From Paraspadella gotoi (taxonomy: Eukaryota > Animalia > Chaetognatha): DNA of 64,000 nucleotides. The translations under genes were made by a program, and so were the position numbers. Each line of letters opens with the position of its first letter. The stretch's first letter is position 1. Positions 40,801 through 55,700 of the stretch are shown piece after piece. The notes below the pieces were generated by a model. The model was not told the DNA's origin, did not search any database, and saw only the letters and a program-made list of their open reading frames with translations. The stretch covers positions 29,910,099-29,974,098 of the forward strand of contig CM119263.1 in NCBI GenBank assembly GCA_051294375.1, in the 5' to 3' direction.

Positions 40801-43800
40801 GCAACAGACTTCTCCCTACGGGAGGGGGGATGTATGGTGGACTAAAATCCACCAACCGTTCATCAGCGGCCATTGGTGCCGGAGGCAAGTCATTCGCCTC
40901 CAACCCAAAGGTCCGGGGTTCTAGCCCGGTGGTCGTCTGGCAGTTAAGAGGGACGGGGTGCTTAACCCGCCTGTAACATGGTGTTACAGCCTGATCCGAA
41001 GTCAGGGACTGCTTATATTGAACGGCTTCTGTGACTAACACATAACAATAATTACTGTCTCTTCAGAGTGATTCTAAAAGCTAAGTATTTTTCATAAAAA
41101 TTTCTAAAAGTGGAAAACAAGTACCAAGAAGTCAATATCCTGTTTAAAGTTTTAATGTTTACAGACAATAAATTCTGTACATATTAAAAATAAACCTCTA
41201 CGTTCTCATCTCAAACTCAATAAAATGGAACAAATCATGTTTGAGCAAACAATGCCGGATCTGCCCACGATCATTATCAATTATCATTATCATTAATTAA
41301 TTTATTAATTAATTATTTCATTAATTAATATTAATTTTTTTTATTCGTGTCAAAAACGTTTTCCACTTTGTCTTGCCTCTCAATCACAAAACAACAATCT
41401 CGATCACAAAATTAATTAACTAATTAATTAATTTATACAAATAATTAATAAATAATTAATTACTTATTTATTAATAATTAATTAATGCAGCTTGAATTTA
41501 CATTTAATATAAAAATAAAAAAGCATAATAAAATAGTGAAATAGTTTGTTTGTTTTTTCCATTTTAACTCATTTCCACTCATTTCCTGCTCGATCACACA
41601 CTTTCCTACCCATATACAAAATTTGAAGTCAATCGCTCCATATTAACTCATTTCCATTTGAACGATTTTATCGAAACTTTATTTCCAGCTCAATCACACA
41701 CTTTCCTACCCACACACAAAATTTCATTCCAATCCATCCATAAAATGACGAGTAATTGGTGTTTTTTGCTAAAGTGGGACGGACGGAGGGACAGACAGAC
41801 AGACGGACGGACGGACATCATTTTTTTTTCCATAATTTATCATAATTCGATGTTCTGACATGATATAAGTGAATGCCCGACAAGATTGGGGGAGGCGGAC
41901 CGACGGACCGACCAAGTGAATTATAAAGCCGGAATCCGGCTAAAAAAAGGATGTCAGATTTAACTTAAAAGCAACAATAGCGGAAGGTGGCGACAGAGTA
42001 AAAAGGCTCTAAAGCCAAATGGTGATTTCACTGATACCTTTTTGTGTCATAATCACAACCTCTCTTGAGTTGGAGGATTTTTTTAACAGGACGATGTCAA
42101 TGTCAATTTATTTTTCTTTATGTTTATATTATGAAGGTTTTAAACATCATTTGACTAAAAACATAGTTTCCCGATCACCCGAGATTAATACGTTGCTTTA
42201 TTTTTAGTGGTTCCAAAAAAGCAAAACTTTATTTATTAATAAATAAATTTGTTTTTAACCTATGAAAACAGTTGTTATCTTCTGAATTTCATATGTATTT
42301 GATTTAAACTTTCTGATCAACTATTTTTCAAAATTTTGTAGTCGGGCATATCATAAGTTCACCCCGCCTATAAGTATAACACTTTCGTGACCCGGTGGCT
42401 CATTGAGTAAAGCCATCAGCTCAATCCCGACCCGATAACTACCCTGCGGGAAGCGTGAGGACGGTCGTAAGCCGCTTTGGGGGCTAGAGGGGTTAAAGAA
42501 GTTGCGGATAGTCATCTTCAGCCCACTTAGGGCCTTATCCACAATTTTTTGTAATTTTCAACAAAATAATGTTTTTAATAATATTTAAATATTGTTTAAT
42601 ACAAGTGTTTTTGTATTTCTATACTTGAAAACATTTTTAAATACTTGGATTTAGTTATACTTGACAAAAGTTAATCCTACTAACCATTTTTGTCTTATCT
42701 TTACAAAATTATAAAATCGATAGAACCGAAAAATTGCCCAAGCGAATTTTTAAATTTTTTGATCTTAAAGAATAGTTTTACATGTGTTTAAAAAAATTAA
42801 TAGGGCACAAGAAGTCCTTCGTCTTTTATTGTATTTATACTTCTCCCATCTGTCGGTGACGTCGCTGCTATCGATCTCGAGGTCGGTCTCGTCGACGAGA
42901 AGTTTGAGAAGATCGGCGCAATTGTTGTATTTCATTAAAGAGCCGACTCTGTGGAGCTCGCTCTGGGGAAAAAAGACGGGAGAATGAGAAAATTATGGAC
43001 TTTTAGATCGTGATTATGGGCATTTCGAAATGGAAGAATGAGTCTGGCACTTTTGCTGAATTAATGCTTATAGGTGGGGTAAACTTAGGCAATGCCCAAC
43101 TACATGCCCCCCAGATTGTAACTGCTTTCAGTAGAGGGAGGGGAGCAATCTTCAGCTAGTCCAGAGGACTGGAATCAGAAGGTTGGAATACGCTCGACAG
43201 GATTGGCTCACCAGTGTGGCTAAGTTGGGCTGAAGAGTGCTATCCGTAAATTCTCTGCTCCCTCAGCTGCCATGGAACTAGTCTTGAAGGTTTTCCAGGC
43301 CCCCAAAGCGGTTTACGGCCGTCCTCATGCTTCCCGCAGGGTAGGTACCGGGTTTGATTAAACCCGGTACCAAGTGGTCATGATGACTTTACTCAATGAG
43401 CCACCGGGTCACAACTGAAAGGTTCATGTTTATAGGCGGGGTGAACTTATGCTATGCCCGACTACATATAGAATTATCGAAATAAACAATGTGACTTTGT
43501 CATAATTTTGGAGTTTTAAAATGAAAAAATTAAGCGTCTGTAGCAAAATGGCAGAAATTAACTTACACACTCTGAAAGGGAAGAAAAAAGATCTCATTCG
43601 CAGAAATGAATATGCTTTTTACATTTTTTCAAACGAAATTTAAATTATGAAATTGGTACAACCAATATAAAAATGATCCATTCATTTAATAAATAAGCTA
43701 TCTTGCCCATGACTTTGAACAGGCTTGGTGATTTATAAGGCCTCCATCACTCTTACAAGATAATGACATAGCAGGTCCCTGCAAGCTTTCAATCAAGACT

Positions 43801-52783: not shown

Positions 52784-55700
52784 TTAACTCAAGGCATGCC
52801 AGTATGCCACCGGCGTTCTCGGATTCTCCATCATTTCTCTCCAATGTCTCATTCCCAAGTGATCCTTTCTCTTTGCCTCCGAGGCGACGGACGACCCCGA
52901 CGCCGTCGAAGAGCGCCGCTTCTCGACGCCGTTCGCTTCTGGCGATTCCACGAGCGGCGTCAATCGATCGTAGGCGTCGTCGTCGTCGTCGTCGTTGTCT
53001 GTGTCGGGTCCCGGATGTAATCCGAGGACGACTTTACCGACGACGATGCTCCGAGCGGAATCTTGACCCATTTGGATGTGGAGTAGGTTAAGAGTTAGGC
53101 GGGAGGAGCGGAGCTTTGGGGGGGGGAAGTGGATAATCATAATCATCATCATCATCATCTTCAATATAATCATCATTATCATTATCATCATCATCGTAAT
53201 CACCATCATCATTATCATTATCATCATCTTTATCATCATCATCATCATTATCATCATCATCAATATAATCATCATAAACATCATCATTATCATCATCATC
53301 ATCATCATCATCAATATAATCATCATAATCATCATCATTATCATTATCATCATCATCATCACCTGCGCCTGCGACAGCTGGAACATCCACGCGTCGTTGA
53401 AGACTGGATCGACTTCGTTGAAGACCACCTTCGACTTCCGCTTTTGATGTTTGTGTCCAGAGGCGGAAGTGGAAAGAACGACCCGGGCGTAGGAATCTGA
53501 ACAGCGAACAATCGAGCAATCAATCGACAAAGCAATCAATTTAAAATTATCAATAAATTTAATTGATTGTTTGAAAAAAAAAAGGATACATTATTCATCA
53601 ATTAATGAATCAATTCTATAATCAAGCAGCAAGTCTTTCAATTAAACATTCAATCAATAAATTATCAGTTGATATTTATTATTTCATAGGTAATTTTCTC
53701 TCACTCTTTTTCCCTCTCTCTCTTACTCTTTCTCTCTCTCTCTCTCTCTCTCTCTCTCTCTCTCTCTCTCACTTGTAGAATTCGCCGTCGCGTCCATGAC
53801 TGGAAGTCCTTCAGCTTTGATGAGACCGACGGCCAAACGTTCCGCCGTCGGAAGATAATTCAAGGAGATGAGAACGTCGCCGATGTCGCACTGACATCAA
53901 TCATATTTACAATGACAATGACAATGACATTGACATTAAGAAATCAATGATAAATGACAAAAATGAAAAATTTCGAAAATAGATAATTGACAACATAAAG
54001 AAATAGCAAAATAATTAAATAAAAAAATGACTAAAAGACAAAAAAAAAAAAAAATAAATTAGCGAATTATGAAAATCGTAAAATTACAAAAATGAGAAAA
54101 TAAAAAAACAACTGAAATAGAAAAATGACAAGTGATAAAAAAATAAAAAGGACAAACAGACAAAAGTTATAAATGTGTGGATAAGGCGCAACGTGGGCTG
54201 AAGATGACTGTCCGTAACTTCTATAACCCCCTCTAACAGCCATGGAACGGGTCCCTGGGCTTGGAACCAGGCTTGAGGGTTTGCCATGCCCCCAAGGCGG
54301 CTTACGACCGTCCTCACGCTTCCCGCAGGGTAGATACCAGGTTGGGATTGAACCCGGTACCTAGTGGTCATGAGCTGATGGCTTTACTCAATGAGCCACC
54401 GGGTCACAACTGAAAGCGTCATGATTCTAGGCGGGGTGAACCTATGCAATGCCCGACTACAAATGTTAAAGAGACTAATTGATGTAACTACAAAATGACA
54501 GAAATACAGAATTTCAAACGTACCAAATTACAATATTGCAAAATGTCCAAAATTTATAAATCATTAAACTACAAATGTAATTTAAATCCGAGGAAATAAA
54601 CGCATAAGCTAAAGACAAAATCACCTTTTTAGGTTTTTTGAAATCTTCTTTTTTCTCGAGGATTTTCCCGACGTCGACGTCTCTCAAGTTGACCGTGACC
54701 TGACCTGCAATTGAATGAAGAGTAAAGTGATCCTGGCTGAGATTATATTTAACGACATTAGATAGCAATGTGAACCTGTGACGTCGTGATGACAGGACTT
54801 GTGATAATCACACGCATAAATGATGAGTTGACTCGAAGAAAACTCAGTCTGTTAAAAAAATAAAAAGAAAAGAAACATTTTAAGAACCAGTCAAGTAAGT
54901 CATATCATAACTTTGATCTTTATCATTTTTTGTACCATTTTTGATATCATTGACATTGTTTTCAGTTTAGCTCCGATTACGTCCAAGATCTGTCCTGCCA
55001 GAGTTCTCCGCACTATCTGTGACTGAACGGCGCTTAGCCGTGACCCTGTTCTCACTTTGTTCACAAGAGCTCTTCTACCTTTTTATTTTAAATTCAAGCA
55101 TTAAGTAAAAACTCTAAAATAAAAAATAAATTAAAAAAAACAAAAGACTTTTTCGATTCTTTTCACTTTTATTCACACACGTATATTCAATTTTCACGTT
55201 ACTTCTACAATTATCTCTGAATAATATTATTTATATCAACTAAGTTTTTCACATTCGTTTTCTTTATTATCTTTAACATTATTGGCCTCCCCCTCCTCCT
55301 CCTCTTCCTCCTCTTCCTCCTCTTCCTCCTCTACTTCCCCTTTTCCTTTGCCAGAGCCGCTTGCAATTGCTTCAACGCAAACGCTTCCATCTGCACGCTT
55401 CGATCCATCGCATCCACATCGACTTTCAACTGGCGAACCTTGTCCACCTGCAAGAAAGAAGTTTACAGCATCAAAAGCGTTTTGGCCTCAATAGTTAAAA
55501 CGCCCACGAAACTTATTGGGGTACAAAGTATTATTGCATAGGTTTAGGAATAAGGATTTGGTCAATAGTCAGGGTTAGGGATTGAAGGGTTAAAAGAGAT
55601 TAGGGTTAAAGGGTTAAAGATTAGGGTTAAAGAGTTAAAGATTAAGGATTGTGGTTAAATAAATTTAAGAGATTAGAATTCAGAAGATGTAAAGATGTTA

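Follow-up and report, generated by a model that had tools for sequence, protein, structure and literature searches.

A stretch of 64,000 nucleotides from the genome of the chaetognath Paraspadella gotoi (contig CM119263.1; in the following referred to as the window) contains several copies of a short non-coding element, here named family B, which is bounded by long terminal repeats (LTRs) in the manner of the so-called TRIMs (miniature retrotransposons with terminal repeats). Its LTR carries a tRNA-derived head with A and B boxes and, behind this head, a fold resembling the P5-type twister ribozymes. It is very probable that this fold descends from a twister, and self-cleavage at the present day is fairly probable. 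By analogy with the LTR retrozymes of plants, family B may be regarded as a non-coding mini LTR retrotransposon with tRNA head and P5-type twister fold that replicates like an LTR retrozyme, a proposal whose chances we rate slightly below even.

Loci, ends and copy number of family B

The family B LTR, approximately 286 bp in length, is found at five loci in the window, and a further locus holds a small piece of it. The features are listed below (TSD, target-site duplication; PBS, primer-binding site; PPT, polypurine tract; P3, P4 and L4 belong to the twister-like fold).

54176..54461, minus strand: solo LTR, 286 bp, TG...CA, the most complete copy; the family-wide ends lie at the same coordinates
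54172..54175, partner 54462-54465: 4-bp TSD AATG (plus strand) of the 54-kb solo LTR
52368..52655, minus strand: LTR of 288 bp; twister-like fold intact (about 52518-52436), A and B boxes degenerate
52344..52367, minus strand: degenerate PBS and interior start (about 14 bp) behind the 52-kb LTR, then truncated
42337..42543, plus strand: solo LTR, 207 bp, TSD ATTT at 42333-42336 and 42544-42547
43215..43466, minus strand: 5' LTR of the PBS-interior-PPT copy, L4 deleted
43105..43214, minus strand: 110-bp interior of the 43-kb copy, PBS 43213-43205, PPT (G6) 43112-43107
43036..43104, minus strand: truncated, diverged 3' LTR of the 43-kb copy; alignment good as far as ~43064 and weak from there to 43036
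62833..63080, plus strand: degenerate LTR, 3' end missing, P3/P4 largely deleted
19292..19320, minus strand: 29-bp 5' fragment of the LTR (sixth piece)

A preliminary description of this DNA had already named the five loci, and their coordinates and motifs were confirmed wherever it had placed them. It had called the 42-kb and 54-kb copies clean solo LTRs with the TSDs ATTT and AATG. The ends and TSDs of both are borne out, and equality of two AT-rich flanking 4-mers has a chance of 0.016 per locus and of 2.6e-4 for both loci jointly; the word clean does not fit the 42-kb copy, which has two internal deletions, one of 24 nt (B box lost) and one of 53 nt (P3/P4/L4). A 4-bp TSD is present in both B copies that have their two ends in genomic flanks (2/2), and also in family A, a second TRIM of the window. 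The 52-kb LTR, with remnants of PBS and interior behind it, is not a solo LTR. For the copy at 43466-43036 (minus strand), the described order of LTR, PBS, 110-bp interior, G6 and second LTR is correct, with one base between LTR and PBS and two bases behind the G6, but the second LTR can be followed well only to the point given in the list. The PBS begins with TGG, 1 nt behind the LTR, and this start and position would fit the PBS expected for a tRNA 3' end. The exact 9-mer, TGGTGAGCC at 43205-43213, occurs twice in the window, as the PBS of family A and as that of family B; with one mismatch allowed there are five matches compared to 3.9 expected, which is chance level.

The copy number was gauged by matching contigs of public sequencing runs, the summed depth of which is not a copy number. 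For the region 53950-54700, 5234 contigs of run X1 were matched, with a summed depth of 98,000-655,000 over the LTR compared to 23 over the right flank, and the contigs leave into unrelated AT-rich DNA at sharp ends (59 at 54176, 68 + 31 at 54461/54462). The depth profile over the 54-kb LTR is the same in runs X5, X6 and X9, the last of which may be RNA but is given no weight with regard to expression. Over the interior, the depth amounts to 15,800-41,400 compared to 18-23 in unique DNA, and one contig from another locus runs from 43064, the truncation point of the second LTR, on into LTR sequence. Although depth does not equal copy number, it is hard to escape a figure of thousands for family B, with ends that are fixed and an interior that is itself multi-copy, and the high genomic copy number expected in the preliminary description is supported. 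The approximately tenfold excess of LTR over interior depth suggests many solo LTRs, in a comparison that joins separate analyses and a diverged interior. Because its junctions occur in X1 and X5, the 43-kb insertion is common to both runs; empty-site alleles were absent among the joints listed (15 of 92 at the 54-kb region, 15 of 570 at the 43-kb region). Another repeat lies directly downstream of the 42-kb solo LTR (42570-42825) and reaches a summed depth of 1,000-3,300 in X1.

The tRNA-derived head and the twister-like fold

Three features make up the functional candidates within the most complete LTR, and two other families of the window share parts of this layout.

54424..54429, minus strand: TATA-like site, located upstream of the head; the 54-kb copy has it in mutated form and the family majority restores it; function putative
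54334..54405, minus strand: tRNA-derived head, 72 nt; A box 54398-54387, B box 54354-54344; cloverleaf eroded
54247..54326, minus strand: P5-type twister-like fold; predicted cut between 54304 and 54303
40404..41065, plus strand: intact two-LTR TRIM of family A; LTRs 40404-40645 and 40831-41065, 185-bp interior, TSD GAGT
43646..44142, minus strand: family C, tandem ~322-bp unit without A/B boxes; same twister subtype at 44069-44030

The preliminary description had reported a tRNA-like segment with A and B boxes in the LTR. In the 54-kb copy the spacing is indeed that of a tRNA, with 46 nt between the boxes (T8 to T54 in tRNA numbering); the motifs TRGCY and GGTTC are present, the YGG of box A is absent. 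The A/B pattern has three matches in the window, the 54-kb copy and both family A LTRs, compared to 0.06 per shuffled window, and it arises in 8 of 5000 shuffles of the LTR. The strict B box, however, is kept in only 1/5 B copies of the window, and neither ARAGORN with default settings, which finds no tRNA gene in the entire 64 kb, nor Rfam calls the head a tRNA. In the folding model it forms two hairpins and not a cloverleaf. The head is a promoter remnant, not a tRNA. The assignment of family B to the tRNA-bearing, high-copy TRIMs, matching the Helenus/TRIMp3 group, is supported.

What was overlooked in the preliminary description is the twister-type fold behind the head. Its layout was read by hand after a weak Rfam Twister-P5 match at this place, and the nucleotide roles are named partly from what is established for the twister class and partly from the papers cited below. 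The fold begins with P5, P2', GA with the three-base pseudoknot strand T1, a 6-nt P1 link and UAA, and continues with a 3-nt P2, the two-base pseudoknot strand T2, an 8-bp P3, which abuts P4, a 5-bp P4 with an 8-nt L4, and P5'. All proposed pairs form in the 54-kb copy (27/27). The pseudoknots of 3 bp and 2 bp are entirely Watson-Crick in family B, P4 is present, and two of the five B copies (54 kb and 52 kb) have kept the two catalytic nucleotides as well as the two pseudoknots intact. The catalytic G, the U^A-A at the cut site and the conserved U and AA in L4 are found in these two copies, in the family A copy A1 and in the family C copy C44030. A twister descriptor has four matches in the window (B at 54 kb, B at 52 kb, A and C) compared to 0.06 per shuffled window, and the maximum in 100 local shuffles was one match; its weight is lessened by the fact that it was composed after the motifs had been seen.

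A further argument for the fold comes from covariation. Among nine motif copies from the three families, 88% of 169 cells pair, compared to 70.5% in shuffles (0/500 as high), and two-sided, compensatory changes occur in 13/23 pairs including both pseudoknots, while slid controls reached at most three such pairs. The three-base pseudoknot differs in sequence in all three families and has kept its complementarity. P5 was omitted from the count, as its register varies between the families in alignment A2. It must be mentioned that these counts are not independent events, since the three families may be related, which diminishes their force. A covariance model of the nine copies, which matches its own input by construction, also recovers the three B copies that are damaged, and in addition two further copies of C type (E 3.5e-6 to 0.004). 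Within family B, all six polymorphic sites inside the fold lie in loops or preserve pairs (p 0.002-0.012). The conservation of the A/B-box head compared to the rest of the LTR is supported as well, with 0/17 family-wide polymorphic sites in its 72 nt (Fisher p 0.009). In the polymorphism counts, rows with a share >0.9 (copy-private; four rows) or <0.045 in X1 (three rows) were dropped, and a caveat is that contig-based variant tables miss rare or end-of-contig differences. Hammerhead and hepatitis delta virus (HDV)-like readings of the LTR, judged by eye, gave no complete core and no Rfam match. A likeness of the segment to the 66-bp Meta-domain that follows the tRNA head in MetaSINEs had also come to attention, but the twister reading explains the segment.

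Family A combines a tRNA head with a twister-like cassette (descriptor match 40530-40586), and cuts predicted after 40543 and 40963 would delimit a unit of 420 nt. Compared with its first LTR, the second has eight small deletions, which may be errors of the assembly. With family B it has in common the colinear cassette of tRNA head and twister, the same PBS 9-mer, the G6 PPT and 4-bp TSDs. The sequence alignment of the two LTRs is colinear from the head through the ribozyme but marginal (score 33; 0/300 shuffles reach it, the best shuffle 32). The case for homology of A and B is based on shared architecture and covariation, not on an alignment of sequence only. It had been stated that the two LTRs are without obvious similarity, which is wrong at the level of structure, and that tRNA capture happened twice or diversified long ago. 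Families A and B are likely homologous, and one old cassette of tRNA and twister that diversified is the better reading; two captures are not favoured.

Family C has one P5-type twister-like fold per unit, in which the two-base pseudoknot has covaried. Its summed depth reaches 1.2 million compared to ~20, and one fixed end lies at 43645/43646. Further copies are located at 44762-45110 (minus), 23612-23765 (plus), 23920-23995 (minus), 29880-30033 (plus) and 30146-30266. The family resembles a non-LTR retrozyme that uses a twister in place of the hammerhead, and if A and B are LTR retrozymes, it would be the likely donor or a sister of their ribozyme.

Natural twisters served as a benchmark. Of the loci in phage contigs, 74 have a P2 strand of 3 nt and 101 one of 4 nt, and 16/20 scanned loci of the former type pass the Rfam gathering score, so a 3-nt P2 strand is ordinary for natural P5 twisters. 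On the contigs L060, L058, L068, L004 and L057, two to five P5-type twisters each lie a few hundred bases apart, and several of these contigs show the U-for-C pseudoknot change of family B together with the compensating A. In metagenome contigs, a family-specific pattern had no match and a general pattern for twisters with short P1 matched seven loci, none of which has the window's geometry among the parses listed.

Several results of this comparison speak against an active twister in family B. The best Rfam match in both local scans is Twister-P5, which speaks for the fold, but the scores (B 16.2 bits, E 0.52; C 25.8 bits, E 0.0013) are below the RF02684 gathering cut-off of 37.6 bits. P1 is a link of 6 nt in B and of 8 nt in A1, compared to at least 14 nt in 76/76 well-formed phage parses; P2 consists of two contiguous pairs and a bulged or broken third, compared to three contiguous pairs in 76/92 phage parses; and three of the window's five B copies have lost L4. 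In the folding prediction, the cut site would lie in the loop of a competing hairpin. With pseudoknots excluded from the calculation, the energy gap between the nested twister fold and the minimum is 7.4 and 10.9 kcal/mol for the two B copies, 8.8 kcal/mol for A1 and 4.9 kcal/mol for C, and gaps as large as those of B occur in two and none of 74 phage twisters (median 3.4). Furthermore, the B segment folds no better than its shuffles (z 0.70 and 0.09), and a model of the window motif retrieves phage twisters weakly (best E 0.012; 37 matches at E<=1 in 74 loci). In favour of the fold, according to McKinley 2024 (PMC11662667), twisters tolerate defects in P1, P2 and P4, but not the loss of the catalytic G/A or of pseudoknot pairs. 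These sensitive positions are intact in the window's fold, the exact P1/P2 geometry of which lies outside the tolerance results given there.

Replication and alternative readings

The fuller form of the proposal takes A and B as animal LTR retrozymes, in which each LTR would hold a tRNA-derived promoter for RNA polymerase III (Pol III) together with a P5 twister that is active in spite of its minimal P1, and in which a circular intermediate and a helper of the Gypsy type would take part; it seems possible to us, with a shade less confidence than the general proposal. Because no sense-strand T run exceeds three in any B or A unit (no T4), a Pol III transcript from the tRNA head would run through both LTRs. 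The twister would then cut once in each LTR and release a unit-length RNA of ~400 nt (~396 nt for B), which may be circularised and subsequently reverse-transcribed by the Gypsy helper. Such a unit has no terminal redundancy, would hence be unfit for ordinary strand transfer and suits a circular template. We infer every step from transcription onward. When folded as circles, natural unit-length slices are 2.4-3.1 standard deviations better than mononucleotide shuffles, with 54-65% of their bases paired, compared to the 70% quoted for retrozymes. In the model for plant LTR retrozymes, copies that are solo, full or multimeric are proposed to arise from circles (PMC4918200; PMC7761336). These elements likewise have TSDs of 4 bp, a PBS, a PPT and numerous solo LTRs, and for their ribozyme a blocked conformation is predicted (PMC4918200). 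The ligase RtcB circularises metazoan retrozyme monomers in vitro (PMC7229834), and tandem twisters have reportedly served for making circles in mammalian cells.

Some points count against this scheme. Cleavage, transcript and circle are predictions from the sequence; an intact two-LTR B copy with TSD was not seen; no helper element turned up, with a genome-wide helper search not made; and the no-T4 state occurs in 43-55% of shuffles, which is unremarkable by chance. Other readings of the same data were weighed.

In one of them the twister fold was taken over from a tandem element, of which family C is an example, and persists as a relic that no longer cleaves. Family B would then be an ordinary Helenus-type TRIM, with a linear transcript of Pol III (or of Pol II, driven by the TATA site) as its template. 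The sub-threshold Rfam scores, the short P1, the broken P2 pair, the large energy gap and the L4 deletions all agree with it. However, the compensatory changes in both pseudoknots across A, B and C and the exclusively tolerated polymorphisms of B imply selection on the fold during amplification. Moreover, the form of the 43-kb LTR with deleted L4 is near single-copy (depth 96 at 43268), and the depth over P3/P4/L4 equals that over the rest of the family B LTR. We consider the relic rather unlikely, although it deserves to be kept in mind.

It is somewhat less likely still that an active but leaky ribozyme replaces the T-run terminator of Helenus as 3'-end former, in which case a linear RNA would undergo ordinary LTR strand transfer. 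A terminal repeat of ~100 nt, from head to cut site, would remain on transcripts whose 5' LTR stays uncut while the 3' LTR is cut. The fold does occupy the place of the Helenus T-rich tract in an element without a T4 run, the competing hairpin is predicted to attenuate cleavage and is strengthened by the family majority base at 54307, and no ligase would be required. On the other hand, with identical ribozymes in both LTRs the useful product would arise in at most 1/4 of the transcripts, and the same fold is found in the tandem family C, which is without LTR and in which excision of unit lengths would be the natural role.

It is very improbable that what follows the head represents another tRNA-derived unit, with a long variable arm, and that its twister likeness is an accident of T-loop-like sequence: relaxed ARAGORN does call this segment tRNA-Tyr in both intact B copies (2/3 calls in the window at -ps90 and the sole call at -ps95, from a setting that is noisy with 161 calls at -ps70), yet the cloverleaf has 3/5 T-stem pairs and a poor D arm where the twister reading with its 8-nt loop has 5/5, the covarying pseudoknots and the conserved GA and UAA are left unexplained, and family C has the fold without an equivalent of the variable arm. 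Generally, replication in the manner of an LTR retrozyme is thus the reading that we prefer.

Neighbouring features and relation to known systems

The 54-kb solo LTR appears to sit in an intron of a C2-domain, synaptotagmin-like gene, exons of which are found at 52787-54700 (minus strand) together with a long ATC-type microsatellite at about 53130-53360. Exons of receptor guanylyl cyclase genes (ANF receptor, kinase-like and cyclase domains) extend over 23984-40221 (minus strand). Both kinds of exon point to an animal host; protein searches gave no match, and the Atlas returned only generic eukaryotic cyclase clusters. A fragment at 35679-37359 has a GIY-YIG-like reading frame, Penelope-like by eye and without Pfam match, and lies between the long inverted repeats 35679-36185 and 36962-37359, within which a minimal hammerhead-like core seems to be present, near 35735-35770 and near 37270-37305. 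Duplications of several kilobases, 22662-26596/28917-32774 and 6228-10858/10968-15139, show 71-85% identity with many indels; they could represent tandem duplicates of considerable age or else haplotype copies that were left uncorrected. A degenerate TTAGGG-like array is located at 37830-38000.

TRIMs that bear a tRNA head and 4-bp TSDs are already known from Helenus, and the unusual part of family B is the twister-type fold. Like Helenus/TRIMp3 (Kojima 2024, PMC10886601), family B is a short non-coding LTR element with A/B boxes in the LTR, PBS and PPT, and it agrees further in the 4-bp TSD of the animal families, the many solo LTRs, the several families per genome and a size within 311-1263 bp. 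The two LTRs with PBS and PPT that characterise Helenus are seen in family A, while family B offers LTR-PBS-110 bp-G6-partial LTR with a multi-copy interior. Unlike in Helenus, the B head is located in the 5' half of the LTR and is followed by the twister-like fold, where the LTRs of the Helenus supplement have the T-rich tract, and Fig. S2 (PMC10886601) shows no PBS with the 9-mer of B. Gypsy helpers are proposed for Helenus, too, and Pol III transcription is unvalidated there as well (PMC10886601). None of twelve short motifs looked up among the Helenus consensus sequences stood in a twister-like context, in a file whose line breaks can hide matches.

With the plant LTR retrozymes (Cervera 2016, PMC4918200; PMC7761336), family B has in common a ribozyme fold inside the LTR of a non-autonomous element, the 4-bp TSD, PBS, PPT, non-coding interior, solo LTRs and the predicted blocked state of the ribozyme. 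It differs by a twister instead of the type III hammerhead, consistent with the lack of an Rfam hammerhead match in the B LTR, by a PBS not corresponding to tRNA-Met, by an internal tRNA-type promoter, by a unit of ~400 nt compared to ~600-1000 and by the animal host. A circle route of LTR elements has been described for plants, and none was found for animals in the literature searched. The metazoan retrozymes are without LTR, PBS and PPT (review PMC7761336) and thus lack the LTR hallmarks of family B. They are closer to family C, which resembles them (PMC7229834) in its tandem ~322-bp unit, low GC and one ribozyme per unit, although theirs are type I hammerheads.

As a ribozyme, the B fold follows the type-P5 twister (Rfam RF02684) in the order P2'-GA-T1-P1-UAA-P2-T2-P3-P4/L4, in the catalytic G and A, both pseudoknots and the 3-nt P2. 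It departs from it in the 6-nt link that stands for P1, in the bulged or broken third P2 pair, in a real P5 stem that closes the fold and in its score below gathering. A degenerate-P1 twister in a retroelement is also known from the Perere-3/RTE variants (Liu 2021, PMC8501958), for which cleavage was shown; those are P1-type and lie at the 5' end of autonomous long interspersed nuclear elements, while the B fold is P5-type and lies inside LTRs. Full-text searches returned no report of a twister in TRIM LTRs, PMC6765202 lists none either, and subscription journals, Repbase or supplements may hold one.

If the predicted cleavage is true, eukaryotic P5-type twisters would gain a biological role, a naturally occurring twister would be at hand in which a link of 6 nt stands for P1, and the question of how Pol III-driven LTR elements set their RNA ends when both LTRs are identical would have a testable answer. 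Three families with compensated folds in one window permit a direct comparison of structure and activity. By inference, family B has the mode of action of an LTR retrozyme and the build of a Helenus-like element, and it is classed neither as a retrozyme, for which the hammerhead is missing, nor as a threshold member of RF02684. Such an element would represent the natural counterpart of the engineered design of Pol III, twister and RtcB for circle expression and would join the Helenus and retrozyme groups.

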